Positions 6,991 to 59,842 of a stretch of 64,000 nucleotides of DNA are shown here, in pieces. Under the pieces are notes generated by a model. It did no database searches. It saw nothing but the letters and a program-made list of their open reading frames with translations, and was not told the origin of the DNA. How positions within the stretch are numbered: position 1 is the stretch's first letter; every line of letters begins with the position of its first letter. Made by a program: the position numbers and the translations under genes. Source of the stretch: Raillietiella orientalis (taxonomy: Eukaryota); assembly GCA_036172245.1 (NCBI GenBank), contig JAYWIR010000136.1, forward strand, positions 1-64,000, written 5' to 3'.

Positions 6991-7872
6991 TGCCTGGAAT
7001 CGCCTCTTGCCGGCAGCTCCGTATAGCCTGTTGGAATGTCAACGGGCTGCGTAGCGGAAGCAAGAGGCGTAACGTGGCCGACACCCTGCGAACTTTCGAT
7101 CTGGCACTTCTTCAAGAGGTGCATGCCCTGAGAGCAGAAGACGTTCAGGAAATCGAGACGCTCACAGGGGGGAGGCTACTTTGGCGTGGTGGAGGAGACC
7201 ACTCCCGCGGAGTGGCCTTCCTGCTGAAGCCAGCGGTCGCCAATGCGGTGCGCAGTGCACAGTTCGACGAGGAAGGTCGAGTCGGACAACTTGTCCTTAA
7301 GTGGTCCGAATCGATCGACCTCGTAGTCACGAGCCTGTATGCGCCCTGCACCAGCCACAGGCGCGCAGAACGCACTGCGTCCCTCGAAGCCCTGCGGCGA
7401 GAATGGCTGGCCGAAGCAGGCGTGCGGCGGGCGCATCTGATAGCGGGAGCCTTCAACGTCCGCCTGCTGTCGGAAGCGCCCGACATACGAGCACAATTGT
7501 TCAACGAGTTGTGTGCGGCTATGCACACACGCAACTTGTTGGCCGATGAAGCCGGAGCGAGAAGCAGAATCCACCACGTGTTCCTTGATAACCACTTGTG
7601 TACGCGGGTGAGGATTCGAGGAGCAATTGCGTCGGAGCTGTCCGATCACCCTCGGCTAGTGATCAACATTCATCCGCGCGACAGAGTTCCACCCTCCGAA
7701 GCGTGGCACCTGCCGGGGGACTAGTTGCGACTCGCAGGAGCGCGAGAACATCTGCGCGCATTCCTGCGTAGTTGCGAACTGCAGACTCTCGCTGACTGGG
7801 ACAAAATTAAACGCTCAGTCGGAGAGTTCTGTGACCAGTGTCCACTCCATCAACTTCCTCCAGGTTTCGGCG
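6990..7872 (+). pseudogene. ORF2 N-terminus, AP endonuclease domain
   Basis: CWNVNG, LQE and SDH motifs; the GDFN motif reads GAFN; stop at 7722. Confidence 0.88.
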
Positions 7873-8289
7873 ATGCCACCCGGATACGCCGGGACGTTTA
7901 TTAAAAACATTTTAACGGTCAATACAGAACGTGGTACAAGGCCCCACTGACGGCCAGGGAATGCCGGAACTGCCGGGACACCGGGACGCAGCCCGGTGTG
8001 GCTCTCCTCGGCAGTGCAGGGGGATGGGGGAAAAAACAAAAATAAAATAAAATAGAAAAACAAACCACAAAAAAAAAAAGTTTGGAGGGCCGGGAAGGGA
8101 TCACAGAAAACTGCTGGGAGCGCCCATCCTATGCAGGATGCCTTCTAGTTCCATTTTCAGTTTTCCTAGGTTGGGCCATCGGGTAGCTCTCCGCAGGAAG
8201 CGAGAAGCATACTCGATGACGTCCCTCACGATGCAGTCTTCATCTTCGGCATCACTCCAGGCCGCCACGATACCACGAATGCAGCAAAG
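7873..8289 (-). mobile_element. Short 3'-end fragment, same subfamily as 5257-6572
   Basis: Close copy of 5257-5670 including the terminal hairpin. Confidence 0.88.
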
Positions 8290-9508
8290 TGCCCCTCCGC
8301 CCGGGGGGGATGCAATGGTGGAGGAACCAGTGGATGGCAGCGTGGGAGCCCAAGTCGGGCATCACTCACGTGCGGAAGCCGACGAGGAGGCGACTCCAAT
8401 GGAGGAGGGTAACCAGGGGTCAGCAATGCCCTCTGAAACCGCCAAACCTGAACCACCCGCATTGAAGGATGTGGGCCAACAGGTACGAACAACACCCCCT
8501 TCGCACGAGCATCCGGAGACGTCGGCACGAAAGAAGGAGGAGGAGTTGGTGGGCAAGACGCCAACCGCGTCCAGCGACATGCGCCAAAAGTTGGCGGAAG
8601 CACCACCGCCAGGTTCCCAGGTATAACACCTGGACTCGCCTGTCGTCGTCGGATCCGCGCGGCCAGTTGGAATGTTAACAGGCTGCGCGTCGACATAAAC
8701 AGACGAGATACAGACGCCACCTTTCGAGATTTCGACCTGGTGCTTTTGCAGGAGATCCACGTTATCACCGCAAAAGACGCACAGGAGATCAAAACGATCG
8801 CGGGAGGGTGGTTGTACTGGCGATGCGGCGCCCGCAACACTTGTGGGGTCGCGTTCTTCCTAAAGCCAGCCATTAACGCGGCCGTGAAGGGCGTGCGCTT
8901 TGGGGACGACGGACGGATCGGCCAACTGATTATCAGATGGTCCGATTCGATCGACCTCATCGTCACCAATGTGTACGCGCTTAGCGGTAAACAGGGATAC
9001 CAGCAGCGCAATGTTTTACTGGGAACCTTGAAGCGCGAATAGCTGGTGGACGCGGACGTGCGAAAGGCGCATCTGATAGCAGGGGATTTCAACGTCCGTC
9101 TGCTCTCAGATCAGCACGGAGCACAGGGTGACGCGTTCAGCGAGTTGTGCGCCGCCATGCGCGCGCGCAACTTGTTGACAGAAATAAGCGGGATGGTCAG
9201 CAGCGTGGACCACGTCTTCCTCGACGAAGACCTGTGCACACGGGTTCGAAAACGAGGGACACTTGGATCGACGCTCTCGGACCATTCCCGGATATTATTT
9301 GAGATGCGCCCTCGAGACAAGGGACCGCCATCCAGGGATTGGCGTATGCCAGGGGACTGGACGCCCCTGTCAGGAGCGAAAGAACATCTTCGCGAATTCC
9401 TGCGAGGCGTCAGCCTCCAGAGTCTCGCGGATTGGGACCTATTTAAGGACTCGGTCCGGGAGTTCTGCGAACAGTTCCCTGTACAACGTCTGCTCCAGGG
9501 ATTCGGCG
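8290..9508 (+). pseudogene. ORF1 C-terminus (to 8626) plus ORF2 APE domain fragment
   Basis: SWNVN, LQE, AGDFN and SDH motifs; stop at 9040; ends at QGFG. Confidence 0.85.
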
Positions 9509-12500
9509 TTATCATTCGGGTACCCCCGGGGCGTATATTAAAAAACTTCACATGCGTGGTCCAAGGCCCCACCACTGCCGTAAACACAGGACCTGTCGGG
9601 ACACCGGGACGCAGCCCGGCGTGGCACTCCCCGACAGCGAAATCGGATAAGGGGAAAAACAAAAAGAAAAATAAAGACATAAAAAAACAAAAAGGGTTTG
9701 GAGGGTAGGGTAGGGATCACTGGTCGCTGTGAGGAGAACCCATCCTTCGAAGAAAGCCCTCGAGTTCTTTCCGCATATCTCCCAGTTGGGGCCATCCGGC
9801 AGCACTTCGCAAGAAGCGTTGGGCATACGGGATGACATCCCTCGCCTATGGACCCACTCCTTCGTTATTGGCGTCGCTCCATGCCGACACGATGCCACGG
9901 ACGCAGCACATGGCTACGATGCCTGCGGCTGGCTGCAGTGCGTCCTTCACGAAGAGGGGCCGAAGAACGTCTCTGGAAGTGCTGCCCGTAGGGAGCCCGA
10001 GGGTCGTCCCGAACCGTTCCCAAAAAGGACGGAGGGCACCACAATTTACAATAAGGTGGGAAAGCGAGTCCTGCTCCCCGCACCTGGCACACGCAGGATC
10101 CACAGCTCCCCTTGTCCAGTGGAAGCGGCGCGCGTTGCAGGGTAGACCCCAGTGCAACAGGAGCAACGCCGACTCTTGCTACTTGAGGGGCAGAATCCTG
10201 GATTCCTTTATCACCGGGAGCCTCTTCAGCTCATCCCTGGGGATGGCGAGCAGCTTGCTTTATCTTAATAACCCTCGCGGCTGGACGGTCTCGGTCGTGG
10301 CGTCGGCCAGATCTCCTGTTGTCCAGCCGCTAATCAACTTCTCGCGTCCCTCGATGCAGCAGGAGACTTGCAACCTCGGCGTCCGTCTGCTGTGAAGTGC
10401 CCACCTCATGAAGGGCAGCGCCGTAGCTAAGCAGGTCGTCTCTGCCCACGTGCATCTTGCTGGACTCTTTAGGAGATTCCGCAGCGTGCAGCGGGCGTAG
10501 CGGCTGCATCGAAGACGATTCCACGTCTCGCGGATGCTCTGGTTGACCACTGACCACGTTTCAATATTCTCCTCCAGCCAGGCGGGGGAGTTGGCGGGGC
10601 GGCAAACCATCCAGCTTTTCTCCTTGGCCAATGTTGCTATGCGCGCGAGCGGTAGGCCGCATCTTCGCATCTTCCGGACACGGCTCAGAAGAAAAGACGC
10701 GGATCCATCGCACCGAGACACACGGCAGGCCAGGAGGCGGGCCGGAACGCACCAAGGGGTGCTCCACATCTTCGCTGCGATGGCAAGGGTTCGTCACCGC
10801 AGCTGCTTCTCCACGCGCTTTAGCGTCAGGAGGCCAAGACCAACGTCCCGACGCGGAGCGCACAAGTCTCTCAGTGGTACTTGGGGCTTCACCTTACCCC
10901 AAAGGGCGACACGGAGGAGATCCTTCGTCCTCTTCTTGGATTCCACGGTATAAGGGCAAACAAAAAGCAAGGGACGGAGGATAAGGCCCGCGAATTGGTT
11001 TCAAACCGCGGCCCGTTCCGGCAAGTGAAACTTGCCTTCCAGGAACGGGCCGATCGCCGTCTCGACTTTTTGGAGGCAGCTGGACCACGCTTTCGCAGGG
11101 GTGAATTCCCCCAACAGCACACCGAGGTACTTGATGCAACTCACCGTGAAGATCCCCAGACGGAACCAGTCCTGCTGCCCTGCCCACGCCGCACCTATTG
11201 GCACAACCGACGATTTCGCCCTGTTAACCTGCAGTCCGGTATCGCGGCTGAGCAGATCGAAGAAGTCTCCGACCGCCTTTGCCGGGGTGGACCCTGGCAA
11301 CAAGAGCAGAAGATCGTCGACGTACGCTGCAACGGCGGGCGTGCCGGGTCACGAGCTCGGCAATGGAGCCAGAGTCACCCTGTACGTTCTCAGCACCAAC
11401 TCTAAGTAGGTGCTGAAGTGCAGGAAGCTTAGACTATCTCCCAGCCTTATGCCCCGATGCTCCGGCACGCCATGCACCTTGTGACCGCTGAAAGAGACGG
11501 TAATCATTGCATTCCGCCAGCAAGATAGCAGGTAGGAAATCAGGGAGGGTGAAACGCCCATGCAACCCAAAAGCTGCAAGAGAGGTTCCTGGTCTACACA
11601 GTCGAACGCCTTGTGGAGATCGACTGCGAGCGCTAGGGCCCCCTTCCCTGCCCGGGTATCCCTTCCCAGCCCGGCTGGCGGCCCCAATGCGGGGTTGCCG
11701 ACTTTCCCTATCCCTTTCTTTTCTCTTCTCTGCAGGTGCACCCATGTGCTTGCGAAGAAGAGGTTGGCATCCATACTTCGCCCGGGAACAGCATAAGTCT
11801 GCTCCGGGCTAATTACGGATTCTGCCACCTGCCCCAGACGCGAAGCCCATAGCCCTGCTATCAACTTGGCGTCCGTATTCACGATTGTGATCGGACGCCA
11901 GTTCTTTAAATTCCTGAGGTCTCCCCCTTTCGGTAGGAGCCTCACTCTGGCTGACCGAAACGAGGCGGGAACATCGCCTTCGTCTCGGATCAGCCTGACC
12001 AACTTAAGCAGCAGGGGTGCCAGCTCTTCCGCGAAGCTCAGAAAGAATTCCGCAGGCAAGCCGTCTTCCCCTGGAGCTTTACGCCTCTTGAGCCTTTTGA
12101 TACTGGCGAGAATTTCGCCGGTGGTAAAAGGCTCGTCGACGCTTTCCATCTCCTACTCCCCTGTTGCCGGGGCGCCATCCGGAAGCAAGCGCCAAGAGGC
12201 GTTCCTATCCGGAAGCTCCCTGGCGTAAAGGGAGGAATAAAAACATCACACGAGATGCCGCACCGACGCCGCTGACAAACATTCCCGGCCCTGGTCTTCC
12301 AGCTAGCTGGCCGAACCGGATTGCCAGGCTAGGCGTTCGGCCCCGGCGCGGTAATCAGCCAGGCGACGGACATTAAGGGTTCTCTCGTACCTACGAGCCT
12401 GCAAATAGGCCCTATGGTTGCAAGCACCCTTGCCGAATCCGGAGGGCAGGCGATCCATGGGGAACTGCTCACAGAACTCGCGGACCGATTTCTTAAAAAG

Positions 12501-12525
12501 GTCCCAGTCGTTGAGATTCCGGAGC
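9509..12525 (-). mobile_element. 3' two-thirds of an element (subfamily C), degenerate ORF2 ending at 9717
   Basis: KAPGEDG, WRPITIVN, DLHKAFD, YVDD and the CARCGE zinc finger; 3' UTR and terminal hairpin. Confidence 0.88.
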
Positions 12526-14431
12526 GTCGAGCGGACGTGTCTTTTCGTTGCTATTGAGTTCCATTTCCGTTGGTGGTTGTGCGTGGTGTGGGTGGAGGAT
12601 TAGGCAGAAATGCCTGATACCACCACCGGTGAGAATCCGTGGGCGATGACCTCATTGCCCCCGGAGCAGATGGAGGTTGGAGCTCCCGCATCAGTGGAGG
12701 CTCCCGCCAGCACGGATGCGCCCCCGGCTCTACCCAGGGCTTGGAACGCCGTGGCTGCGGCACCTACGCCAGCGGCTATGGCGGAAATGCGCGCTTACCT
12801 GGAGGAGGGGTATAACCAACCCCTTCTATATAAGGTAGGCGGTCTATATTCTCCCGAGAACGCGCGCGCCTTCTCACAGGCGATGCGCGTTCTCGGCGTA
12901 CAGAAAGAGGAGCTTCTGGCTATGTCCGTCAGAAGCGGCAGTCAATTTGTGGAAGTTATCTGCAAAGAAGCAACTCTTGCGCAGAGACTTCTGCGAACCC
13001 CCGTAAGTATGGGCAGCCGGAGGCTTCTCCCAATAACTGAAGACCGGTCGGTGATCATTCACCTGACCGGTATCACGTTCCGGATGACGAAGGAGGCCGT
13101 CCGGAACGAATTGGAAAAATTCTTAACTGTCCACGCGCTGTGGGGAAAGCCTACTCCTTTTGTCGATTACGACGGGTTGCCTGGCGGCCTGGGTGCAGCG
13201 CGAGTGACGGTTCGCGAGGGATGTGAGATTCCCCACAAACTCACCGTCAACGGTGAATCCGTTGACGTGTGGTACGTAAGGAAACCCAAGTTTTGCGGCT
13301 GCTGCAGCAGCTTTGGTCACCTTAAAATGAGGTGTCCGAGAGTGCAGTGCCAGCAATGCAAACAAGCGGGGCACACCCGTCTGTTGTGCCCCTAAAACAC
13401 AGTCCGCGTCGTGTCCGCGAAAAACGCGAGAAAGCGCGCGGCAAAAAAAAGAAATAAGCTGGCAGTTCGTGCTGCTGCTTAGGAGGTCACCTCCGCCACC
13501 AAGTCGAAGGCCAGCCCCGAGACTTCGGCGAAAAACGCCGAAAAGGTCGAGGGCGAGGGTCAAGAGCCAGGGTGGCAAAAGGTCGACCCCAAGAAAAACT
13601 CCCATAAGAAGGGAAAGAACGTGGCGAATCGGAGTGAAACCGCTCTGCGCCGCGATAAAATTAAAAGCTGCTGCGTCGTTGTAGAGCGGATTCCCGCCAT
13701 CGACGAATGCGGCGCTAAAGAACTCGCTGCTGCCGCTGCTCAACCCTCCGTTGACAAAGTCAACAAGGAGGGGAGCGAGGCGGCGGCGTCCGTCATCGAG
13801 CCCACGCTCGATGACGTCGCCTTCGAGCACGCCGCGGAGGAGCTGGCTGCCTCGTTGCAGCCGGTTGCCCCCAAGGCTGGCAAGAAGGCCGTCAGGCGTC
13901 CGGCTTCCCCTCAGGATTCGGCCACTTCCGACCCCGAGGTGAAGGCCGGAAACGCAGCATCCATCTCCGCGGCACCCCGCAAAAAGGCAGGACGAAAGTC
14001 CACAATGCCCCGGAAGATCGTCTCCCCCGACGAAGGGGAAGAGATGGCTTCCGGTAGCGAGGGTGTCATGAGCGTGGGAAACTCCCGGGACCCGTCGCCC
14101 GAGAGAATTCCACGCTCGGACACGCAGGGGATGGTGAGGATGGAGGCCGAACAGGTACCCCAGGCGCCTAAAGAGGCCTCCGTCCTCGTTCCGATGGTCC
14201 TCGTACCGATGGACCTTTCGTACACCTGCCCCGCGGCAGGTGCCGCGACGGCACTTTCCCAGCCATAATGCCGGGAATCGCCTCTCGCCGTCGTCTTCTG
14301 ATCGCCTGTTGGAACGTGAACGGGCTAAGCGACGACGGCAAGAGGCGTGACGTGGCCGCCACCCTGGCATCCTTCGACCTGGTGCTGCTGCAGGAGATCC
14401 ACGTGATCTCCGCAGATCAAGCCTGGGAGAT
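12526..14431 (+). mobile_element. 5' part of an element (subfamily D): ORF1 and the start of ORF2
   Basis: GCGGACGTGTCTTTT 5' motif; TAATG ORF1/ORF2 overlap at 14266-14270; interrupted at 14432. Confidence 0.88.
12610..14268 (+). pseudogene. ORF1 with premature stops
   Basis: MPDTTTGE start; CGCCSSFGHLKMRC and CQQCKQAGHTRLLC knuckles; in-frame stops at about 13393 and 13480. Confidence 0.88.
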
Positions 14432-14786
14432 TTCTCACCCGGTCACGCCGGGGCGTTTATTCCATATAACATAACCAAAAAAAAAGCAATTATACAAAAT
14501 AAACCAGTTGGGAACCAAACTCCCAACCGACGACTGAACAAGAATGAAGAGAATATTGCTGGCACGCAGACCAGAGTAACAGTTTTGTGAACGGTGTGGG
14601 GGGGCGGGAAACACAAAGAAACCAAAATAAAATAAAAACAATGAATAAGGAGGACGGGATAAGGGTCTTTGGGATCGCTCTGGAAGACACGGGGATAAAA
14701 GCATGGGCACCGGAAATTTTACCGAGCGAACGGGGACGGGGTATGGGTGGGCGAGAGGTCGCAGGGGTCACCGGAATACGCCGTTC

Positions 14787-17700
14787 TCAAAGGTGTGTAA
14801 ACCGGCGATGTATGCCGGTGATGTCCTCATTCACCTTGTCACGAAGATGAGACCACCTTGAAGCCTTCTCCATGAATTGAGCTGCAAGCAGGTGAGCCTC
14901 CCTTCGCTGCGATGACAACTCCAGGGCGTAGCGGGCCTTCACGATGGCGCGAACGCAACACATGGTTGCGACAATCGCGCCAACCGAAAGTCCATTTCTG
15001 CTGAAGAAGCGCCGCAGCACATCAATGGCAGTGCCTCCTTGTGGCATGATGGCCAAAGTGAGCCTTCTCCATAGTTCCCGGAGGTCACCGCAGTCCAGCA
15101 AAAGGTGCGGAAAAGACTTGATCTCTCCGCACCTTTAACAGTTTGGCAAAGCAGCTCCCCCGGAAACGATGCTTCGCTGCCTATTACAGTGAAATGCACA
15201 ATGTAAAAAGAGCAGCACATCTTGTTTCCACTTTAGGGGGAACACGAAGCTGTCCAAACAAACGGGGGGAACCACTATCTCTCCGGGGAGCACACTTAAA
15301 TGTTCGCTGCACCGAAGCAGGCCCTTCGCTTGATTCCGAGGATTGGCGGCTTGCACCAACTCCTTTGTCGTCCAGCTGCCGAGCAGCTTACTGACTCCCG
15401 CTATTTTGCAGGAGAACTCCCTTTCCGCCGGTAGGCAACCGTCGTTGCTTTCCCTGAGGGCAGACAGAGCTGCGGCGAGTGGTGTGGCGGCCAGACGATC
15501 CGACATCTTCTTGTCCTGCATGATTTCGTCCATTTGATGACTGAGGAGAAGTCGCAGGCGCCGAAGATCTTCCGGGCTCGTTCTTTCGGAAGCTGCAACG
15601 ATGAAAAAGATTCCTGCCGCCATGCATTAATGTTAATGAGGGGGCAGAATTTGCAGCTTTGGGCTTCCAGCAATCAGGACAGCTGCCTTAGCGGAAAGCC
15701 AAACCCAATTCTGGTGTGCCGAAATCAGTCCCTGGCTTCACGAGCAGCGCCTCAGTATAAGGCGTGCGGGTGAGCACCACGGCGTACACCACAGCCTTCG
15801 CACACAGCAACAGCATGCGGAACTGCACCTGCAGTTCGATGCTGTTTAAGTCGAGGATGCCCAAGCCTGCATCCTGACGCGGCGCCACCAAGTCTTTAAG
15901 TCTAAAACGGAATCTAGCAGCGGCCCACAACGCTTTGCGTAGAAGTCGCTGCTCCCAGACTTTGACTTCCTGGGGGGGTGGACAAACAAAAAACAGGGGG
16001 CGGAGGAGGGGGGCAACGAAGGTGTTCCAGATGCAGGCCCGTTCCGGCAAGACGAACTCGCCTCCTGAAAACGGGCTAAGTGCACGCTCTGCCTTCCGAA
16101 GGCAGTCCGACCACGCTTCTGAGACGCAGAAGTCGCCCAACGGCACGCCAAGGTACCTGAGGTACCTGCCCGTGGGGATCCCCAGGTCGATCCAGTCGGA
16201 CTGCCCCTCCCACGTCGCACCAACCGGAACAACCATACACTTACTCCTGTTAACGCTCACGCCCGCACCCCGACGGATCAACTCAAAGAAATCTTCAAGC
16301 GACGCTGTCGGGGTGGACATGGGCAACAGGAGAAGCAGGTCGTCGGCATAGGCTGCCACGGCGGGCGTACCTCGACAGGAGCTCGGCAGGTTGGCTAGCG
16401 TCAGCCTGTAAGCCTCCAGCACCAATTCAAAATAGATGCTGAAGAGCAGCGGGCTTAAGCTGTCACCCTGCCTAATTCCTCGTCGTACCGGCACGCCATA
16501 CACGCGACAGCCACTGAAAACAATGGATGTAATCGCGTGGCGCCAGCAGGAGCGCAAGTACGCCAACAGGGATGCCGGAAGACCCAGACGTTCCAAAAGC
16601 TCAAGAAGAAGCTTTTGGTTCACGCAATCGAAAGCTTTGTGCAGATCGACTGCAACCGCCAAGGCTCCCGGTGTCTCCCTTTGCGTCCGGCGCCTCCGTC
16701 GGTGAGAGATCGAAGGCGTCGCTTCCGCACGACGATCCACCGCCACACGATGCTGCAATTGCAGCCATGTGCGGATGAACAAGAGATTCGCGTCCATGGA
16801 CCGCCCAGGAACAGCGTACGTCTGCTCCGGACTTACCAAGGATTGCGCGATCCTACCCATTTGCGCCACCCAAAGTTTCGAGAACAACTTGACGTCCGAA
16901 TTCACTAATGTGATCGGACGCCAGTTGTTCAGTTGGCGCAAATCTCCGCCTTTCGGCAGTAGACGCACCTTCGCTGAGCGAAACGAGGCGGGGACATCGC
17001 GCTTGTCTCGCATCAGCGACGAGAGCTGGAGCACCAGAGGGATGAGCTCCGCCGCAAAACACTGAAAGAATTCCGCGGGGAGCCCATCTTCGCCTGGCGC
17101 TTTTCGTCTCTTGAGCCCCGAGATGGCCGAGGAAATTTCCTCTGCCGTGAAGGGCTCATCAAGACGCGCGCGTTCCTCCTCGTCTACAACAGGTGCATCA
17201 ATCGGCAGAAGCAGCCGGGAGAGGCTGCGTTCCGTCGGTGCCTCTGCATACAGAGAAGAGTAATAGCGCCTGACTATCCGTCGCACGTCGGCTGGAGCCG
17301 AGCATTCCCGGTCCTGGTCGTCGAGCAGAACTGTCGCCCCTGACTGCCAGACCTGGCGCTCGGCCTTGGCCTTGTACTCGGATAATCGACCAACGTCCGC
17401 GCACCTGGAAAAGGAGCGGGCCTGCAGAAAATCTCTGCTGTTGGCTACGCCCTCTCCGAAGCCGCGCGGAAGCTGGTGCAAGGGAAACCGGCAGCAGAAC
17501 TCGCGGACCGATCTTTTCAGATCGTCCAAGTCCTCGAGCTCACTTATGGCAAAGCCGAGGAGGTACTGGCGAAGATGCTCAGCCGCCTCCGGGTGGCTTA
17601 GCCAGTCTGCCGGCATCCTCCAAAAACAGTTTGGAGGCCCCTTGCCTGGCGGGAGCAACTCGAACTCGAGCCTGTTGTGGTCTGAAAGCACGGACGGCAC

Positions 17701-18345
17701 GGGACCTCTCCGACCCACTCGACAGAGCAAGTGTTCATCAAGGTATACGTGGTCCGGCGTTGCTGCCATAACAGGGTCGCTAGCGAACAAGTTGCACGCG
17801 TGCACGGACGCGCACATCTCTTCCGGTAGCAACTTTTCCCTTTTGTGGGATCTATTCTCGGAAAGCAGGTGGACGTTAAAGTCCCCCGCAATGAGATGGG
17901 CCACAGTAGGGTGAGATCGAGTGAGCCACTGGCCTTGAAGGGTACCGAAGAACTCAATCCTTTCGGCCCATCGTCCAGCACAGCTCGGCGCGTACACGTT
18001 GGTTACGACAAGGTCGATCGAGTCGGACCACTTGAGTACAAGCTGTCCCACTCGGCCTTCCGTGTCGAAACGAACGCTGCGCACCGCTCCCGCCAAAGTT
18101 CCTCTCACGAGGAAAGCGACGCCGCACGTACGTGCAACGCCGCACCTATAAAGTAGCGTTCCGCCCGCGCGCCGTTCGATTTCGGCAGCCTGCTCTTCGG
18201 AGATGCTGTGAATCTCCTGCAGGAGCGTCAAGTCGAAGGCGCGCAGAGCGTCAGCCACTAGTCGCCTCTTCTCCTCGTGTTGGAGCCCGTTGACGTTCCA
18301 AGACGTTACGGCAACACGACGAGAAGACGCGATTGCCCTCATCAC
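14787..18345 (-). pseudogene. ORF2 (APE-RT-zinc finger); 885-aa open N-terminal part, frameshifted distally
   Basis: SWNVNG, GDFN, SDH, KAFD, QGDSLSP, YADD and RYLG motifs; C-terminus split across frames. Confidence 0.9.
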
Positions 18346-20246: not shown

Positions 20247-20361
20247 GTTGCACTATGCTACTTGGCAGATTGCACAGGAACACACAAGTGCGAGCAAAAA
20301 CGCAGGCACAAAGTTGCCCGATCGTTGGCGCGGAAAGACGCGGAAACACGTCTGCACTGTA

Positions 20362-23300: not shown

Positions 23301-23793
23301 TCCGGTGCTCATGGACTCGCGCACCCTCCCCATGAAGTGGCAACAGTCGGCACTGATGGTGTTGCATTGGGGGCTTCCTTGCAACGCCCGCCGACACCAC
23401 TGGACGCGGGGGGGTGTCAACCCTAATTGTGTCAGGTGCGGGGAGAGGGAATACCTCCCCCAACTGTTAGTGGATTGTGTTGCCCTCCGTCCCTTGTGGG
23501 AACGCTTTGCCGCAGCCCTGGGGATCCCCGGAGGCAACCCCAGAGACGCTTTGCGCCCCCTCTTCGTCCGTGACGCCCTGCCTCCAGCGGCCTCGCTTGC
23601 AGCCCTGTGCTGCCTACGCGGGATCGTCGTGGCATGGAGCAAAGCGACGGCAGGATCCAGCGACAGGGATGCCAACGTGTATGCTGCCCGTTTCATCAGG
23701 ATGGCGACGCGATGGCCCCATCTGGAACCACACAAGCAGAAACAGCTTGCCGGCATCCTCCAGAGGATGACGGACCCTCCCAGCAGACTGTGA
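20362..23793 (+). pseudogene. ORF2 (APE remainder, RT, zinc finger) with stops
   Basis: SDH, YADD and CVRCGE motifs; stops at about 22447, 22561 and 22825. Confidence 0.9.
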
Positions 23794-24007
23794 TCCCTTC
23801 GCGCTCCCTTCCTGATTTTTGTTTATTTTTTGTTTTCTTTTTGTTTCGTTCCCCTCCCCGCTGCTGCCGAGGTCGACCGCGCCGGTCTGCGCACCGGTAG
23901 CCCGGCAGGCTATATCTTTCCAGGGCGTGGCTGGACTACTGGTCCAGTCACAGATTGTATAAGTTTATTCGTGAGAATAAACGTCCCGGCGCACCCGGGT
24001 TTCAATG
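20362..24007 (+). mobile_element. ORF2 and 3' UTR of an element (subfamily E; probably the continuation of 12526-14431)
   Basis: APE resumes at AQEIERI; ends ataaacgtcccggcgcacccgggtttcaat. Confidence 0.85.
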
Positions 24008-24020
24008 GAGATTCCGGAGC

Positions 24021-38267: not shown

Positions 38268-38275
38268 TGGTGTTG

Positions 38276-41368: not shown

Positions 41369-41586
41369 TCCTCGCCTTGAGCGGTGAGGGCGATTCCGGG
41401 GCGGACGCCCCTGATTCTGTAGGCTGTGGGGGTGGGCAAGCCTCCCCCACACCTACCTCCATCGTGGTGTCCTCAGGCATCGCTGCCATCGGACACCAAC
41501 GATGTTCCACACCAAACAACAATAGAAAAAAAACCGCTTCCTGTCGACTCACTCGGGAGCGAAGGAAACACACGTCCACTCGCCAA
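41369..41586 (-). mobile_element. Short 5'-end fragment with ORF1 start at 41480
   Basis: GGACGTGTGTTT 5' motif; MPEDTTMEVG start. Confidence 0.75.
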
Positions 41587-44526: not shown

Positions 44527-44536
44527 CGCAGTGACG

Positions 44537-44550
44537 GCAGACGTGTTTCT
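44537..44550 (+). promoter_or_regulatory. Conserved 5'-terminal GACGTGT motif (representative copy); putative internal promoter
   Basis: Present within about 10 bp of the 5' end in most subfamilies. Confidence 0.5.
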
Positions 44551-44620
44551 TTTGCTGCTCCTGCGTTTTAGCGCGAGGTTGTAGGTTGTGTGGTGTTTGG
44601 GCGGTGTTTTGAAGGCAGAA

Positions 44621-46366: not shown

Positions 46367-46374
46367 CAACACCA

Positions 46375-49300: not shown

Positions 49301-49937
49301 GCAGGGGAAATGGACCGTATCCTGCACCATCAAAAGTAGGACACAAAAGATTAAGGCGTGGACATCTCGGCAGCTAGCGGACGCTGCGACGCCGAGTGTT
49401 CCGCCCAACGGAATCCGACGCTAAGGAGAGCTACTCGGACTATCTCCGGCGGAGATGAAGTGGCCCCCAGCGTCTTGGAATAGTGACTCTCTCCCCCTGA
49501 AATGGCAGGAGGTGGCGCTGCTCGTGATACATTGGGGTTTACCCTTCAAGGCACGCCTCTCTCACTCCACTCGGGGGGCTGTGGATTCCCAGTGCGACCG
49601 GTGCGGGGAGAAAGAGACATTCCCCCACCTCCTTATTGAGTGCATTGCTCTCCGCCCTCTCTGGGATCGTCTTGCAGCAATCCTGGACATTCGCGGAGGC
49701 GGCCCTAAAGATGTTTTTAGGCGACTCTTCTTGCGTGATGCCTTGTCCCCTCCCGCTACTGTGACAGTTCTTTGCTGCATTAGAGGGATCGTGTCGGCTT
49801 GGAACGCGACAAGAAGAAGGCGCCAACCTTGCGGCAATGCTGTACACTGGAGTCGCCTTTTTGTGAGAAACATTTGCAGGTGGAGACACCTGGGTGCACA
49901 ACGGACGCAGCTGGTGAAGATCCTGAACAGGATCTAG
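46375..49937 (+). pseudogene. ORF2 of element I, disrupted
   Basis: Garbled APE start at about 46420-46610; stops at 47094 and 49422; RT motifs intact. Confidence 0.9.
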
Positions 49938-50196
49938 AGGACCTTTCAGCGTGCAATGTGATTCCCTTCCCGCCCTCCCTTCCCAAACATAAGTACTCCC
50001 TCCAACTTTTAAATTTTTTTTCTTTGTTTTGTTTTTTTCTTCCCGTTCCCGCGCGTTGGAAGGACCTCGCCGGTTTAGAACCGGCAAGAAGCAAGCTGCT
50101 TTGTGCTGAACCATCAGGTTCTTCACCCGAAAATTACATGTATTTTTATTTTTTTAAATAAATCCTCCGGCATATCCGGGTAAAAACGCAGTGACG

Positions 50197-53100
50197 TCAC
50201 CATCAGCTGACGACAATGCCGTTCCGGCATTGCCAGCGAAGGACGTCTGCGCGCCGATCGATGAAGCCGCCCCTGTCGCGCCTGCGCAAAGCGTCGGTGC
50301 GGAAAGCGAGGAGGCGGCGCGCATAACGGACGCGACCTTCGCGCAGGCCGCGGAAGAGCTGGCAGCCATGTTACGGCAGCCTGCCAAGGCCGAGAAGAAG
50401 GCCTTGAGACGACCGGCAGCGGTGAAGGGCCCGGAAAATTCCGAGTCCGAAACCGAAGCCGGTTGTTCTACTTCCGCAGCCGTGCCGAAGAGGAAGGCTG
50501 GCAAGAAGACCGGTTGCCCGAGACGGGTCGCCCCTCAACAGGTGGAGGAGGCCATGTCCTCGGGCACGGAGGAGGAGGCAATGTGCGTCGCGCCACGCGA
50601 CCCCTCTGCGATCCGTGTCTCGGAAGCCAGCCCCATGGAAGTCGCTGTGGACGACGTGCTCCCGTGTGAGCAGCCGACCGTCGTCACGGCCGCCAACAAG
50701 CCGCCTCCCGCAAGGGAGGAGGCCGCCTCCACCCCACAATAAACGCATCAGTGTGTGGGCTCGCCTTCTGCCGCCGCTTGCGCATCACCTGTTGGAATGT
50801 CAACGGGTTGCGCGACGACGGAAAGAGGCGAGATGTAGCCGCCATACTGCGAGATTTCCACCTGGTGCTCCTGCAAGAGACGCACGTTCTCCGACCGGGA
50901 GATGTCCCGGAAATCGAAAGAATCGCGAAAGGGCGGCTACTGTGGAGGAACGGAACGGACAACTCCTGCGGAGTGGCCTTTCTGCTAAAGCCAACCGTCG
51001 ACAACTCACTGCGCAGTGCACGGTTCGACGGGGATGGTCGAGTTGGGCAGCTTGTGTTCAAGTGGTCCGACTCGATCGACCTCGTAGTCACGAACCTGTA
51101 CGCTCCGGTGAGCAGCCACAGGGCCAAGGAACGCACCGCGTTCTTGGAATCCGTGCGGCGAGACTGGTTGGCCGAAGCAGGCGTGCGAAGTGCGCACCTC
51201 ATTGCGGGCGATTTCAATCTCTGCCTGCTGGCAGGTGCGCCCAGCGGACGAGCACAGCTGGTCAACGAGTTGTGCGCAGCCATGCATGCGCGCAACTTGT
51301 TGGCCGGCGATGCCGGGAGAGATCGGAACATCGACCACATGTTCCTCGACAACCACCTGTGCACGCGGGTGGGAACTCGAGGAACGCTCCCGGCAGAGCT
51401 GTCCGACCATCCACGGCTCGTGCTTGAGTTACATCCGCGCAATAAGGGCCCTCCCCTGAAAACATGGCGCCTGCCAAGGAATTGGTTGCGCCTCGCAGGA
51501 GCGGCGGAACATCTACGCTGTTTCCTGCGAGGATTCCAGCTTCAGACGCTCGCGGAATGGGACGAAATGAAGTGCTCATTCCGTGAGTTTCGCGACCAGT
51601 TTCCCCTGGAACGTCTTCCGCCGGGCTTCGATGAGGGTGTCAGGAACGAGCGGGCGTACCTCCAGGCGCGCCGTTATTCCCGGCGTCCCGACGTCCGTCG
51701 CCTGGCTGAATTCAAGGCTGAGGCGGAGAGGCAGACCTGGCAGTCAGGCTCGGCCTGCCTGCTGGATCATCAGGGCCAAGAACGCTCCAGCCCAGCCCAG
51801 GTAAGCCGCATCGTGCGGGAGTTTTATTCCTCCTTGTACGCGCCACTAACACCTGAGCGCCATTTCGCGCAGCGCCTGCTGCCGGATGGCGCTGCCGCGC
51901 TCAAGGAGGAGGACCGTTCCAGATTGGCGGAACCTTTCACGATGGCGGAGATCATCTCCGCCATCAACAGGCTCAAGAGAAGGCAGGCACCAGGGGAGGA
52001 CGGCCTTCTTGCGGAGTTTTACCATCGCTTCGCGCCAGAGCTGGCCCCCCTGGTGCTCAGGTTAAGTGCGCTGATCCGCGAACACGGCGAAGTTCCCGCC
52101 TCGTTCCGGTCAGCTAAAGTACGTCTCCTGCCGAAGTCAGGAGACTTACGCAACATTGGCAACTGGCGTCCCATCACAGTAGTGAATGCGGACGCAAAGT
52201 TGTATGCCAAATTGTGGGTTGATCGTTTAGGACCGGTGGCGGATTCCGTGATCAGCCCGGAGCAAACATACGCTGTTCCCGGACGAACCATGGAGGCCAA
52301 CCTGCTCCTCGCCAGCTCATGGTGGCAGTTGCGACAACGCGTTGCACAGGACGGTCAAGGGAGCCTCGCGTCCACCTCTCACCAAGAAGATCGTGCAGAG
52401 GGTGGGATGGACTCGGCGGGAGCCTTTGCCGTCGCGGTCGATTTGCACAAAGCATTCGACTGCGTCGACCAGGATCTCCTTCTGGAGCTCCTGGAACGCA
52501 TGGGTTTCCCTGCCGTGCTTCAATCTTACCTGCGCTCCTGCTGGCGCAACGCGTCAATCAATATCGGTTTCAGCGGCCGGCACGTGTACGGCGTGCCCGT
52601 ACGCCGCGGCATCCGGCAGGGTGACAGCCTGAGCCCCTTGCTCTTCAGCATCTACTTCGAGTTGGTGCTGAGGGCATACAGGGTAACTCTGGCAACCCTG
52701 CCGAGCTCGTGTGCCGGCACGCCTGCCGTGTCGGCCTATGCAGACGATCTTCTGTTGCTGCTACCCGGGTCCACCCCGGCGAGTGCACTCGAGGACTTCT
52801 TCGAGTTGCTGCGCCGCGGGACGGGCCTGGAGGTGAACAGGGCGAAGTCGTCCATGGTCTTCGTCGGTTCGGCGTGGGCTGGACGGTCGGACTGGATCCG
52901 CTTGGGGATCCCCACGGGCAGGTGCTTTAAGTACCTTGGTGTTCCGTTGGGGGAATTCTGCGTGACAGAAGCCTGGTCCGACCGTCTACAAAAGGCATCG
53001 TTGGCGATCGGTGCGTTTCACGAAGGCAAGTTTTACTTGCAGGAACGGGCCGCGGTGTGGAACGCGTTTGCGGCTCCCCTTCTTCGCCCCCCACTTTTTG

Positions 53101-54565
53101 TTTGCCCCGCCCTTTATTTTATTCGGAAACGAGCAGCGGGCCTCCTGAGGACAGTCCTTTGGGGCAAAGGGAGGTCCCGTGTGAGGCTCAAAGACTTGTG
53201 CGCTCCACTTTAGGACGGTGGACCTGGCGTACTTACGCTGGAGCGCATGGAACTACAACTTCGATTCAGGACTCTCGCCCTTGCGGCAGAATTGTGGGGC
53301 ACGCCTTGGTGCGTTCCAGCACGCCTCCTGGCCCAACGAGCCTGCGGAATCGGCGGACTTTTGTCGTTTCTGTCTGCGCGCGTCTGCAGAAGACCATACT
53401 GTGGCTCTATGCTGCGACGCATCTTTGTTGCGGTTCGGGAGAACGCCTGGATCTCCTGCCTCCCAGGGAACTACTCCGCCTGGTTGCACGAGTCAGTCTC
53501 CACCTGGGTAAAGATCCACGTTCCGGCGGGCACAAGGAACACTTGTATGAAAAGGCACGCCCGCTGGACGCTGCAGGAGATCGTGCAGTCCCACTACAAG
53601 CTTCTGTGGGCCTTGATAACCCCCCTCGCCCCAGTGCTGCCCTTCCTTGTGAATGCCAGGGACAGTAGCGAGCAGGGGAAATGGACCGTGTCCTGCACTA
53701 TAGGCGGCAGGACACAATCGCTAAAGGCGTGGACATCCCGGCAGCTAGCTGACGCTGCGACGCCGAGTGTCCCGCCCAACGGAATTCGACGCTGGGGCGA
53801 GCTACTCGGACTATCTCCGGAGGAGATGAAGTGGCCCCCAGCGTCCTGGAACAGTGCATCCCTCCCCCTGAAATGGCAGGATGTGGCGTTGCTTGTGGTC
53901 CTCTGGGGACTTCCATTCAAAGCACGCCTTCATCACACAACCCGGGGGGCTGTGGATCCTTATTGTGACCGGTGCAGGGAAAAAGAGACCTTCCCCCACC
54001 TTCTCATCGAGTGCAGTGCCATCCGCCCTTTATGGGATCGTCTCGCGGCGATCCTGGACTTGCGCGGATGCGGCCCAAAGGACGTTTTCAGGCGCCTCTT
54101 CTGTAGTGACGCCTTGTCCCCGCCCGCTAGTGTAGCAGTCCTCTGCTGCATCAGAGGAATAGTGGCGGCTTGGAACGCCACCAGAAGAAGGCGTCAGCCA
54201 ACCGGCAACGCCTTACACTGGACTCGCGTTTTCGCGCGAAGTGTCTGCAAGTGGCGCCACTTGGGCGCTGAAAGGACTCAGCTTGTGCGGATCCTGAATA
54301 GGATCTAGAGGACCTCTCCACGCGCACCGTGATCCCTTCCCCGCCCTCCCATCCCTACAACATTTGTTCCCCCCCCCACATTTGAACTTTTTGTTTCTTT
54401 TTGTTTTTTTTTATTTCCCATCCTCGCGCATCGGAAGGACCTCTCCGGCACGGAGCCGGTAACCAGCAAGCTGTTATGGAGTGGTGAACCTTCGGGTTCG
54501 CCACGCGACAATTTTTCTGTTAGTTTATTTCTATGAAATAAATGCCCCGGCACATCCGGGTGTGA
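50197..54565 (+). mobile_element. H/G-type element: ORF1 C-terminus (to 50742), ORF2 and 3' UTR
   Basis: Resumes after the TSD at VTSPSADD; ends aaataaatgccccggcacatccgggtgtga. Confidence 0.9.
50751..54308 (+). pseudogene. Near-intact ORF2 (APE-RT-zinc finger, ~1185 codons), one in-frame TAG at 53211-53213
   Basis: The 820-aa and 353-aa ORFs are in the same frame; all catalytic motifs are present. Confidence 0.92.
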
Positions 54566-54574
54566 ACGACCGTA

Positions 54575-54726
54575 TTTCCCATCCCCGCGCATCGGAAGGA
54601 CCTCTCCGGCACGGAGCCGGTAACCAGCAAGCTGTTATGGAGTGGTGAACCTTCGGGTTCGCCACGCGACAATTTTTCTGTTAGTTTATTTCTATGAAAT
54701 AAATGCCCCGGCACATCCGGGTGTGA
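54575..54726 (+). repeat. Tandem copy of the terminal ~150 bp of the 3' UTR
   Basis: Nearly identical to 54414-54565; separated by acgaccgta. Confidence 0.92.
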
Positions 54727-54737
54727 ACGACCGTAAA

Positions 54738-54926
54738 GTGAGAGGACGTGTTTTTCGGTGCTTCCGAAAACCGTCTTTTTTGCGAGTGTCGGTGTTTTTC
54801 TAGGTGCGGTCGTTCCTGGGCAGAAATGCCCGAGGACACCGCCACCACGGCGAAGGGGGGCGAGCGAGCCTCGTTCCCCCAACCCATGGATGTGAGGGCC
54901 ATCTCCCCCACGGATTCGGGTGTGAA
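54738..54926 (+). mobile_element. Subfamily G 5' end fused to a 10-nt 3' terminus (mini-element)
   Basis: Matches 40226-40405, then cgggtgtgaa at 54917-54926. Confidence 0.7.
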
Positions 54927-56309
54927 CAACCCGCCGCCGCGCGAACGCCGACGCCGCGACAAAGTCGCGAGCCCAGCGTGAGCAGCGACGATCGGGACTT
55001 CAACAAGGCGGCGGAAGAGTTGGCAGCTATGCTCCAGCAGCCTCCCAATGCCCAGAAAAAGTCCTTGAGGCGTCCGGCTGAGGCGAATGGACCGGTGACT
55101 TCCGAGTCCGAAGCCGAAGCCGGCAACGATCCGGCTGTCGCTCTCCCGAAGCGCAAATCGGGCCGAAAGGTAGGCAACCCGCGGCGCTCCCCACCTCCAC
55201 CGGCGGAGGAAAAAATGCGGTCGGACCACGACGACGGGGAGGCGATGTCCGCAAGGTCTCGCGACTCCTCGCCGGAGACGTCCCTGGCAAAGCAGGGTCA
55301 TCCAACCACCACCACAACCACCGACGGACCGCCTCCTTGCGAGCAACAGCCCGTCGCAATGGATACACAACTCCCGCCTGCTGAACAGCAGGCGGAGGAC
55401 GGTAAGCAAGCACAATAAACACACCAACGCGTGGACTCTCCTCCTGCCGGCGACAGCGCGTAATCTGTTGGAACGTCAACGGGTTGCGCGACGACGGCAA
55501 GAGGAGAGAAGTGGCCGCCAGCCTGCGGGACTTCGACCTGGCGCTTTCGCAGGAGGCGCACGTTCTCCACGCAGGGGAGGCCCAGGAAATCGAACGGATT
55601 GCAGGCGGGCGGCTCGTATACCAAAACGGGAGAGACCACACCCGCGGTGTGGCTTTCATGCTGAAGCCAGCCGTCGTTGATGCGCTGCGCGACGTGCACT
55701 TCGACGGGGAAGGTCAAATCGGGCAGATTGTTGCCAAGTGGTCCGACGCGATCGACCTCGTCGTGACAAACGTGTACGCGCCCGGCGCGAGCCACAGGCG
55801 CGGGGAACGCACTGCGTTCTTCGAAGGCCTGCGGCGAGATTGGCTGGCCGAAGCAGACATGCGAAAGGCGCACCTCATTGCCGGGGACTTTAACGTCCGC
55901 CTGCTGGCAGGTGCGCCCGACATTCGCGCACAGCTGGTCAACGAGATGTGCGCTGCCATGCACGCGCGCAACTTGTTGGCCGGTGACGCCGGGACGAAGA
56001 CGAGGATCGACCACATGTTCCTCGACAACCACCTGTGTTCGCGGGTGGGAAATCGAGGGGCAGTGCCATCCGAACTCTCCGACCATCCCCGGCTCGTGCA
56101 AGAAATACACCCGCGCGGTAGAGGTCCACCCTCCACAGCGTGGCGTTTGCCAGGGGACTGGTTGCGCCTCGCAGGAGCAGCGCAACATCTTCGCTCGTTC
56201 CTGCAAGGCTTCCATCTGCAGTCGCTCGCGGACTGGGACGACTTGAAGAGCTCAGTCCGCGAGTTCTACGACCAGTTTCTCCTTAACGGTCTTTCTCCAG
56301 GTTTCGGCG
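54927..56309 (+). pseudogene. J-like ORF1 C-terminus (to 55418) plus ORF2 APE domain (from 55427)
   Basis: FNKAAEELAA in ORF1; CWNVNG, GDFN and SDH in ORF2; cut at PGFG. Confidence 0.88.
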
Positions 56310-59167
56310 TCATCACTCGGGTACGCCCGGGGCGTTTACTAATAAACTTTACATGCGTGGTACAAGGCCCCACCACGGCCGTAAACACAGGACCTGTCGG
56401 GACATCGGGACGCAGCTTGGCGTGGCACTTCCCGACAGCGAAAGGGGATGAGGGGAAAAACAAAAAGAAAAATAAAGAAATAAAAAAAACAAAAAAAGTT
56501 TGGAGGGCAGGGTAGGGATCACTGGTCGCTGTGAGGAGGGCCCATCCTTCGAAGAAAGCCCTCGAGGTGTCTCCGCATATCTCCCAGTTGGGGCCATCCG
56601 GCAGCTCTTCGCAAGAAGCGCTGGGCATACGGGATGACATCCCTCGCCTGTGGACCCACTCCTTCGTTATTGGCGTCGCTCCATGCCGCCACGATGCCAC
56701 GGACGCAGCACAAGGCTGCGATGGCTGCGGCTGGCTGCAGGGCGTCCTTCACGAAGAGGGGCCGAAGAACGTCTCTGGGAATGCTGCCCGTAGGGAGCCC
56801 TCGGTTCGCCCCGAACCGTTCCCAGAGGGGTCGGATGGCAGCACAGTCCACAATAAGGTGAGGAAGCGACTCCCGCTCCCCACACCTGGCACACGCAGGA
56901 TCCACAGCTCCCCTCGTCCAGTGGAAGCGGCGCGCGTTGCAGGGTAAACCCCAGTGCAACAAAAGCAACGCCGACTCTTGCCACTTGAGGGGCAGGATCC
57001 TGGATTCCTTCATCACCGGGGGCCACTTCAGCTCATCCCTGGGGATGGCGAGCAGCTCGCCCCATCTTCTTAGTCCTCGCGGCTGGACGCTCGCCATCGT
57101 GGCGTCGGCCAGTTCTCCTGTTGTCCGGCCGCTGATCAACTTCTGGCGTCCCTCGATGCAGTAGGAGACTTGCCACCTTGGCGTCCGGGTGCTGTGAAGT
57201 GCCCTCCTTAGGAAGGGCAGCGCCGTAGCTAGGCAGGTCGTCTCTGCCCACGTGCATCTTCCTGGACTCTCCAGGAGATTCCGCAGCGTGCAGCGGGAGT
57301 AGGGGCTGCATCGAAGACGATTCCGCGTCTCGTGGCTTCTCTGGTTAACCACTGCCCACGTTCAATATTCTCCTCCAGCCAGACGGGGGAGTTGGCGGGG
57401 CAGCAAATCATCCAGATGTTCTCCTTGGCCAATGTTGCGATGCGCCCGAGCAGTAGGCCGCATCTTTGCATATTCCGGCCACGGCTCACAAGATAAGACG
57501 CGAGTCCATTGCACCGGGACACACGGCAGGCCAGGAGGCGGGCCGGAGTGCACCAATGGGTGCTCCACATCTTCGCTGCGATGGCGAGGCTTCGCCACCG
57601 CAGCTGCTTCTCCACGCGCTCCAGCGTCAGGAGGCCGAGACCGCCGTACCGACGAGGAGCGCTTAAGTCATCTAGAGGCAGACGTGGCCTCCCTCTGCCC
57701 CAGAGGGCGATGCGAAGTAGGTCCTTGGTCCTCTTTTTAACGTCACGGGGGACGGGGCACACTAAAAGCAGGGGGCGGAGGATGGGAGCCGCGAAGGCGT
57801 TCCACACCGCGACCCGTTCCGGCAGAAGGAACTTGCCTTCCAGGAACGGGCCGATTGCCAACTCTACCTTCTGGAGACGACCTGACCAGGCTTCTGCGAG
57901 GCAGAAGTCCCCTATCGGGACACCCAGGTACTTCAGGTACCTGGCCGTGAAGATCCCCAAGCGGATCAAGTCAGGCCGTCCGACCCACGTCGCACCCACC
58001 GGTACGACCGACGACTTCGCCTTGTTTACCCGCAATCCAGTCCCACGACTTAGCAGGTCGAAGAAATCCTCTACTGCGGCTGCCGGGGCGGACATGGGCA
58101 ACATGAGCAGAAGGTCGTCGGCGTATGCTGCTATGGCGAGCGTGCCGGGGCACGAGCTGGGCAGGGCAGCCAAAGTCACCCTGTACGCTTTCAGCACCAA
58201 CTCAAAGTAGGTGCTGAAGAGCAGGGGACTGAGGCTATCGCCCTGCCGTATGCCCCGTCGCTCCGGCACGCCGTACACCTGTTGGCTGGAAAAGACGATG
58301 TTGACAAAGGCATTGCGCCAGCATGAGCTCAGGTAGGAGAGAAGGAAGGGTGGGAAGCCCATGCGACCCAGGAGCTGCAACACTAGCTCCTGGTCTACGC
58401 AGTCGAACGCCTTGTGGAGATCAACGGCGATCGCTAGGGCTCCCTTCCCAGCCCGGGTATCCATTCCCAGCCCAGCTGGCGGTCCCAAAGTGGGGTTGCC
58501 AATGTTTCCCCCTGTTTCCTTCAGGCAAGGCTGCACATGGAACCATGTGCTCGCGAAGAACAGGTTGGCATCCATACTTCGCCCGGGAACAGCGTATGTC
58601 TGCTCCGGGCTAATTATGGAGTCTGCCACCTGTCCTCTACGCGAAGCTCACAGTCCAGCGATCAGCTTGGCGTCCGTATTCACATTTGTGATCGGACGCC
58701 AGTTGCCTAGGGATCTCAGGTCCCCTCCCTCCGGGAGGAGCCTCACACGGGCTGACCGAAACGAGGCGGGAACGTCGCCTTCGTCTCGGATCAGCCCGGT
58801 CAACTGGAGCACCAGGGAAGCCAGCTCTGTCGCGAAGCATTAAAAAAATTCCGAAGGAAGGCCGTCCTCCCCTGGCGCCTTACGCCTCTTAAGCCTTTTA
58901 ATACCGGCGAGAATTTCACCGGTAGAAAAAGGCTCGTCGGGGCTGATCCTCTCCTCCTCCCCTATTGCCTGGCCTCCGTCCGGAAGCAGGAGCCGCTTTC
59001 GGGGCAGGTGCCCCTATCTCCATGGGTACGGGGGACGTTCGCCCGGCCCCCACCCCACATTCACTAGTGGCGGGATCTGGCATTTCTGCCATCCCCCGAC
59101 CACTGATGCACCGCACTACACCAATAAAGTCGAACGAGTCAGAAGCGCGCAGAGAACACGTCTGAAC
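56310..59167 (-). mobile_element. Subfamily C element: 3' UTR, ORF2 RT and zinc finger (stop at 56519), joined near 58990 to a 5' end with ORF1 start at 59083
   Basis: YADD and CARCGE motifs; CAGACGTGTTC and GCAGAAATG at the right end. Confidence 0.85.
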
Positions 59168-59829: not shown

Positions 59830-59842
59830 GAGAATCCGGAGC

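Follow-up and report, generated by a model that had tools for sequence, protein, structure and literature searches.

Why do several copies of one retroelement break off at the same codon, each joined there to the tail of another copy in the opposite orientation? The question is raised by a 64,000-nt stretch of Raillietiella orientalis (assembly GCA_036172245.1, contig JAYWIR010000136.1, positions 1–64,000, forward strand; "the window" below), which consists entirely of nested copies from a single poly(A)-less, L1-like long interspersed nuclear element (LINE) family. The original prediction, made from the letters alone, was of recurrent antisense insertion at one point of the second open reading frame (ORF2), in the linker between the apurinic endonuclease (APE) and reverse transcriptase (RT) domains. 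A single old insertion that was later copied as DNA is unlikely, because the histories of hosts and inserts disagree, identity between two of the composites changes stepwise at the junction, the hosts diverged at third codon positions, and the site recurs in different hosts. A preferred, sequence-dependent site is the best reading.

The plus-strand ORF2 fragments halt at TTCGGCG at 7872/7873, 9508/9509 and 56309/56310, exactly the coordinates that had been predicted. From the next base on, all three continue as the reverse complement of a minus-strand element, beginning at its exact 3′ terminus; the position of each join is ambiguous by at most 4 nt, as the insert tails end in ...CGCC, the complement of GGCG. 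The junction codons encode the G-F-G of a conserved LPPGFGEG (about residues 318–320 of the reference ORF2), past the Exo_endo_phos domain (residues 42–247) and ahead of RVT_1 (residues 488–759). The plus-strand parts correspond by tblastn to reference ORF2 residues ~7–328, 8–325 and 16–320; they carry Exo_endo_phos and stop short of RVT_1. Wherever else in the window the strand switches from plus to minus at a tail, the polarity matches that of these joins.

The first host (H1, 3940–7872, plus strand, mapped by tblastn) is a resident element that runs from its 5′ start to G-F-G. It contains ORF1 and ORF2 residues ~7–328 (6924–7872), with Exo_endo_phos in the ORF at 6801–7721, a nested antisense element called e5262, and TTCGGCG at 7866–7872. 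The tail of I1 (7873–8291, minus strand) joins it; I1 is the 3′-terminal 419 bp of an element of the alpha clade (ORF2 residues ~1146–1212 and the 3′ untranslated region, UTR) and is 94.6% identical to 5252–5672, with homology stopping at 8291. The second host (H2, 8292–9508, plus strand) extends from the C-terminal region of ORF1 to G-F-G, with ORF2 residues ~8–325 at 8566–9508, Exo_endo_phos in the ORF at 8452–9039, and TTCGGCG at 9502–9508. It is followed by I2 (9509–12510, minus strand), an alpha-clade element whose preserved part runs from the 3′ terminus as far as ORF2 residue ~290, with RVT_1 in the ORF at 11352–12152. The third host (H3, 54735–56309, plus strand) begins with a full 5′ start, has lost an internal part of ORF1 and retains ORF2 residues ~16–320, with Exo_endo_phos in the ORF at 55406–56512 and TTCGGCG at 56303–56309. 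Its partner I3 (56310–58995, minus strand) is also of the alpha clade and extends from the 3′ terminus as far as ORF2 residue ~403; after it, a piece of 5′ UTR and ORF1 start lies on the minus strand at 58995–59167.

The hosts are indeed three different sequences (H1–H3 76%, H2–H3 65% and H1–H2 64% identical), and the inserts belong to two subfamilies, as predicted: I2 and I3 share 92% identity and are each 72–73% identical to I1, which is 96% identical to the tail of e5262.

A half-junction at 41587 had been taken for the other side of such an insertion, with a minus-strand 5′ end joined to the host 11 bp before the equivalent point. The geometry is as claimed. J (41358–41586, minus strand) is the 5′ end of a full-length element plus filler, with its 5′ start AGTGGACGTGTG at 41569–41580 (AGTG at 41577–41580 and GACGTGTG at 41569–41576), which matches the 5′ starts of other full-length copies. 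Six filler bases (41581–41586) separate it from R (41587–44528, plus strand), a resident element present from GGGCTTCGGTG to its 3′ terminus. The copy of GGGCTTCGGTG at 41587–41597 begins 11 bases before the equivalent join, the position expected of one copy of a target-site duplication (TSD). The half comes, though, from a fourth host, unrelated to H1–H3: R is 98% identical to 30093–33026, the 3′ 2.9 kb of element E18, which holds its RT part. We considered H3 and R as two halves of one host and rejected this. Since R is 98% like the RT part of E18 while H3 is only 78% like its APE part, R and J represent a fourth event. Separately, a 10-nt string, CGGGCGTACC, occurs in the sense orientation within the 3′ hairpin region of I3 (56325–56340) and again in the R/E18-type host (41623–41632), ~26 nt past the nick position proposed below; this sharing may be chance.

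The window also contains ordinary two-sided insertions. The element e5262 (5257–6572, minus strand), an alpha-clade sister of I1, is antisense within ORF1 of H1 and has a 10-bp TSD (GAAGGCGGCG at 5247–5256 and 6573–6582); its target is GGCG^GAGG (^ marks the point of insertion) in the context GAAGGCGGCGGAGG. E28 (61200–63453, plus strand), an alpha-clade sister of I2 and I3 together, lies in sense orientation in element O′ with a 12-bp TSD, CAAG(G/T)CTGGCAA, at 61188–61199 and 63454–63465, and its empty site is present at 13872–13883. E11 (14432–20365) is full-length and two-sided, antisense in the O/E12 element, with a decayed TSD of ~11 bp (GCCTGGGAGAT on one side, GCGCAGGAGAT on the other). 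O (12513–14431) and E12 (20366–24008) together make up a single full-length element on the plus strand; E11, whose own ORF2 is open for 895 aa, interrupts it near ORF2 residue 80.

Homology crosses the junction in all three pairs of composites, so a single origin had to be tested against multiple origins. A tree built on the last 416 bp of each tail has the form ((I1,e5262),(E28,(I2,I3))), with supports of 100/100, 96/95 and 99/98. Constraining I1, I2 and I3 to one clade costs 137 log-likelihood units and is rejected by the approximately unbiased (AU) test (p-AU 2.3e-54), which used 14 of the 16 tails; the long-branch rows e14437m and e25180m were excluded, and the 16-row tree has the same topology. 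Both e5262 and E28 nest among I1–I3, and neither can descend from the truncated I copies, since each is an ordinary insertion with its own TSD (10 and 12 bp, respectively).

The second and third composites (C2, H2 with I2; C3, H3 with I3) differ in how their two parts compare. Their host parts are 59–75% identical per 100-bp bin, low up to the last bin and without any high-identity patch. Their inserts are 92–95% identical in the first four bins wholly inside, 83–95% (mean ~91%) over 1.3 kb and ~78% thereafter. The step, from ~66% to ~92%, falls at the junction, with two gaps in 3.5 kb, and the tree paths differ eightfold (0.66 for H2–H3 vs 0.085 for I2–I3). Host differences by codon position are 69:62:131 (H1–H2), 52:35:88 (H1–H3) and 80:76:129 (H2–H3), with chi-square p of 7e-8 to 1e-4 and host omega (nonsynonymous to synonymous ratio) of 0.22–0.41. 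As the differences sit at third codon positions, H1–H3 appear to have diverged mostly as working genes, before they were broken. Over the 3′ 1.1 kb I2 and I3 differ neutrally (39:35:34 by codon position); they have no premature stop codons in common, which is not decisive alone as a test of DNA-level copying.

From these comparisons the three joins appear to represent at least two, and probably three, separate events. The original prediction held one ancestral event copied by duplication to be unlikely and proposed that host and insert phylogenies be compared. The insert tree, the step in identity between C2 and C3 and the third-position divergence of the hosts bear this out, and the two histories disagree, although host monophyly itself is not rejected.

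Two further features of the cluster concern its recombination history. The alpha-clade copies (9509–12510, 56310–58995 and 61200–63453) have mosaic ancestry: I2 and I3 are closest (~91%, neutral) over the 3′ 1.3 kb, and upstream of this I2 is nearer E28 (synonymous divergence, dS, 0.30) than I3 (dS 0.65). Recombination between subfamilies may account for this, or the resolution of cDNA against copies already present. There is also a 10-kb inverted duplicate (30094–40112 vs 44527–54568, 94.7% identical overall) whose two halves have different histories: A and E19 are 97.4% identical and differ neutrally, and B and E18 are 93.3% identical, patchily so (76–99%), with a third-position excess. B–E18 was tried as a neutral control for the codon-position test and failed (71:45:126). 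Gene conversion is active in the cluster, as this patchiness and third-position excess indicate.

The site around the G-F-G codons reads GGGCTTCGG(C/T)GAGGGTG, and 4 of its 11 copies in the window are broken exactly there. Uninterrupted copies lie in E18 (33016–33026, minus strand, GGGCTTCGGTG^AGGG) and near 37386–37396, 47252–47262, 51620–51630, 17464–17474, 21090–21100 and 12435. The left joins all read GGCG (3/3), and six of the seven intact sites read GGT, GGA, GAT or GGG, the other reading GGC and then A. Either GGCG-bearing hosts would be preferred or the C would have been supplied by the insert tail. Target and tail overlap by 2–4 nt at every resolvable join, those of e5262, E28 and E11 included; for the alpha tails (...CGCC) the overlap is GGCG. 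Because GGCG occurs 87–98 times (~95) per full-length element, tail pairing alone is insufficient to pick one site. The alpha target sites with known downstream sequence are alike (GGCTTCGGYG^AGGG and GAAGGCGGCG^GAGG), and the similarity of GGYG^AGGG and GGCG^GAGG hints indirectly at sequence-specific cleavage. By our own arithmetic, three of ~9 tail-to-internal joins would fall by chance at one position and orientation of ~11,000 with a probability of ~7e-7.

On balance we lean towards target-primed reverse transcription (TPRT) starting at a preferred sense-strand nick in resident copies, aided by 4-nt pairing of GGCG with ...CGCC. An alpha sub-lineage whose RNA ends in ...CGCC would repeatedly start TPRT at one place in resident copies. 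The nick would fall on the resident sense strand directly after TTCGG(C/T)G, at the G-F-G of GFGEG between the endonuclease and RT domains, and the freed 3′-OH (...GGCG) would pair with the terminal 4 nt of the incoming RNA, whose cDNA would then extend the host sense strand. This would leave the newcomer antisense with its exact 3′ terminus at the join, and a second cut 10–11 bp upstream would produce the copy of GGGCTTCGGTG found at the start of R. At each of the three joins an entire element tail meets an internal point of the host, as TPRT predicts. The joins have the polarity of TPRT: the host sense-strand 3′-OH continues into cDNA from the RNA 3′ end of the other element, and the same G-F-G site accounts for the start of R at 41587. 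The family endonuclease may prefer roughly CGGYG^RRGG, reinforced by tail pairing, and the missing far sides of the inserts may have been lost through deletion or rearrangement, at integration or afterwards. Twin priming was rejected as the origin of the composites; the join uses a true 3′ terminus, not two internal positions.

Several observations weigh against this mechanism. The remainder of the host is present beyond the insert in none of the three cases: to the right of I1, I2 and I3 are the ORF1 end of H2, the 5′ start of O and an E12-like 3′ piece, whereas both sides are present for e5262, E28 and E11. The same one-sidedness marks the inserts at 25175 and 29309. A TSD of ~11 bp had been predicted at the G-F-G site, and no complete insertion with a TSD is seen there in the window. 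Three of the five alpha tails are at the site, with e5262 and E28 elsewhere; the predicted hotspot therefore stands as recurrence in different hosts by two lineages and not as strict target specificity. At 19 places in the window the derived motif CGGYG^RRGG is present but carries no insertion, so this short motif would not by itself define a preferred site. Active gene conversion makes the codon-position argument weaker than it looks, and in a poorly resolved host tree the data do not reject monophyly of H1+H2+H3 (p-AU 0.09) or of H2+H3 (p-AU 0.058). All of the evidence comes from four events within one 64-kb window.

Internal priming with the roles reversed would explain the missing host parts. 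Here the 3′-OH of an older minus-strand terminus (...CGCC) would anneal to GGCG in a plus-strand RNA and prime cDNA to its 5′ end, and the plus-strand pieces would be 3′-truncated newcomers. Besides the absent downstream part in all three cases, this accounts for the complete 5′ starts of H1 and H3 and for the C of TTCGGCG, found in 3/3 joins vs 1/7 uninterrupted sites, as if it came from the insert tail. When the plus blocks are removed, a minus tail comes to lie near a minus 5′ start (I1 with Z at ~1771, I3 with J at 41580), an arrangement of tail then 5′ start that occurs elsewhere at 44528, 24008, 54722 and 59830. However, such priming requires a nick exactly at an element terminus three times, leaves the start of R at the same site unexplained, and calls for another explanation of the tail-to-internal joins at 25174/25175 and 29308/29309, whereas canonical TPRT covers them all. 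Internal priming is rare among studied LINEs, and we consider it unlikely here.

Less probable still are two readings without repeated use of a preferred site. One old antisense insertion may have been copied by segmental duplication in the array, the copies then diverging and being partly overwritten by gene conversion. Homology through the junction in all pairs, the O-type element to the right of both C2 and C3 (93% identical, 12513–13883 vs 59830–61199), the conversion evident in the cluster and a host monophyly not rejected at 0.05 would all agree with this. It is already disfavoured by an incompatible insert tree (AU p 2e-54), the eightfold path difference with its step at the junction and a host identity that stays low to the last bin, the third-position bias of the hosts and the lack of common stop codons. 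Alternatively, there may be no endonuclease preference, and the joins would reflect GGCG/CGCC tail microhomology at random breaks, end joining of fragile spots or misassembly of a repeat array. The short overlap at every resolvable join and the extreme repetitiveness of the region (91.3% self-similar) make this conceivable, but with 87–98 GGCG per element, all of ~95 being equally usable, the chance of triple re-use of one site is ~1e-3 to 1e-2 (again our own arithmetic), and the composites differ from one another by 8–35%, which one collapsed or duplicated assembly error would not produce. We give this last reading as little credence as duplication. A sequencing-run search listed one DNA run (X1) together with two others from its sample or study, and no RNA run among them. 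Comparison of X1–X3 with 50190–57200 at 80% likeness gave 325 short contigs, from X1 only. Among the 6 of 219 loose contig ends listed none is at the site, and no listed contig could be counted as bridging 56309.

A more far-reaching version of the TPRT mechanism seems doubtful to us. In it, the alpha sub-lineage would have evolved endonuclease and tail specificity for the GFGEG of its own family and would insert antisense, disable rival copies and build or renew a centromere-like, LINE-only array. The only alpha copy that covers the site, I2, has its own intact G-F-G site near 12435; this reads TTCGGCAAGGG, with GGCA^AGGG in place of GGYG^AGGG, which would fit partial self-immunity.

The window has a G+C content of 58.7%, and 91.3% of its bases match some other place in it, the unmatched remainder being variable ORF1 and UTR portions of the same elements. 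There is thus little between the copies of this localised, nested cluster. Six-frame ORFs of at least 180 residues (88 scanned) contain only retroelement domains (Exo_endo_phos, RVT_1, zf-RVT and zf-CCHC), and an Rfam scan of the window gave no matches. A full-length copy (44529–50189) spans ~5.7 kb: it opens with the 5′ start AGTG..GACGTGT, its ORF1 encodes a CCHC knuckle, and its ORF2 has APE, linker, RT and zf-RVT in that order. Exo_endo_phos and RVT_1 are found within single ORFs (15691–18375 and 50670–53210) with zf-RVT downstream, the ORF2 organisation of the L1 superfamily. Upstream ORF1s have zf-CCHC matches near the cut-off (E 2e-4 to 4e-4; ORFs 38279–39751, 40230–41384 and 44585–46363). 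The top match of ORF2 among solved structures (PDB) is human L1 ORF2p (E 1e-44); a protein search with ORF2 found only two distant unnamed matches (23–27% identity), and an ESM Atlas search gave generic APE-RT clusters.

A motif search located 17 element 3′ ends in the window, none of which has the poly(A) expected of L1. They end with the motif (T)AAA..CCCGG..CCGGGT and a tail of ~9 nt, for example GAAAACGC. All 17 share a conserved 3′ module of AATAAA, a GC hairpin (CCCGG-loop-CCGGG) and ~9 nt (e.g., 54530–54568 and 56310–56350), which is probably the RT recognition element. A metagenome scan with the 3′-terminal motif returned 117 loci; 0/117 were similar to the element by tblastn or blastn, and we regard these as chance matches.

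Other joins in the window follow their own patterns. Head-to-tail joins in the same orientation occur at 3938/3945, 24008, 44528/44529, 54722/54735 and 59830, where a 3′ tail is followed 0–30 nt on by a full 5′ start (AGTG..GACGTGT) and the upstream partner is usually 5′-truncated. Such joins could arise if RT passed from one RNA, at its 5′ end, to a second RNA, at its 3′ end, or if one target was used repeatedly. Seven minus/plus joins are head-to-head (1771–1790, 8291/8292, 12510/12513, 27908–27920, 40112–40233, 41580/41587 and 59167/59168), with a full-length 5′ start in one partner in six of them and one cut by a few nt at 59167; one possibility is that two cDNAs primed off opposite strands were then joined. 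Directly after the 3′ terminus of element B, 54569–54722 is a 154-bp copy of the end of B's own 3′ UTR, which gives a second tail at 54722.

The family resembles human L1 in the order of APE then RT, TSDs of ~10–12 bp, 5′ truncation and a primer proposed to pair with the RNA 3′ end. It differs in lacking poly(A) and a T-rich target, the proposed nick context being G-rich (...GGYG^RGGG).

Target-specific APE-type LINEs include R1 (28S rDNA), SART/TRAS (telomeres) and Tx1-group elements. As is proposed for the family described here, their endonuclease picks a defined sequence and their RNA 3′ end pairs with the target, and, as in this family, poly(A) is scarce or absent; R1Bm endonuclease is reported to cleave its 28S target specifically (PMC1919474). 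Unlike in R1, SART/TRAS and Tx1, the target in the window is the family's own coding sequence, entered antisense, and the preference is not strict (3/5 alpha tails).

The Zepp and ZeppL L1 LINEs of green algae form self-targeting nested clusters at putative centromeres (PMC8226300, PMC3446292). Compared by description only, these are also LINE-only clusters of nested, often 5′-truncated copies inserted in existing copies, with an ORF1 and an ORF2 that has endonuclease and RT, and Zepp has a similar GC content (61% in Coccomyxa, PMC3446292, vs 58.7% in the window). The window elements differ in lacking poly(A) (0/17 tails) and in their full length of ~5.7 kb, vs >8 kb reported for ZeppL of Chlamydomonas (10.1101/2025.03.28.645958). 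The published accounts compared, which did not include the original Zepp descriptions, give no nucleotide-precise antisense target inside ORF2. CNL1 of Cryptococcus also forms self-targeting arrays and is reported to insert preferentially into its own copies, with undefined sequence specificity (PMC12810828). It is described as kin of R2 and MoTeR, with another type of endonuclease, and as telomere-linked, whereas the window element is closest to L1 ORF2p by sequence. Within the portions of the literature on self-targeting and site-specific LINEs that we covered, the original Zepp descriptions not among them, we found no precise antisense target within an element's own ORF2 described.

Self-targeting LINE arrays (Zepp, ZeppL and CNL1) are thus already known, and the accounts drawn on here leave open how the elements find their own copies. 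If the preferred nick is real, a precise and orientation-specific entry point within ORF2 would be a concrete, testable mechanism for self-targeting. It would bear on the growth and turnover of LINE-only arrays of the kind proposed as algal centromeres, and would illustrate how subfamilies of one element compete. If internal priming is the true explanation, the joins would instead represent an unusual, recurrent route to 3′-truncated LINE copies.

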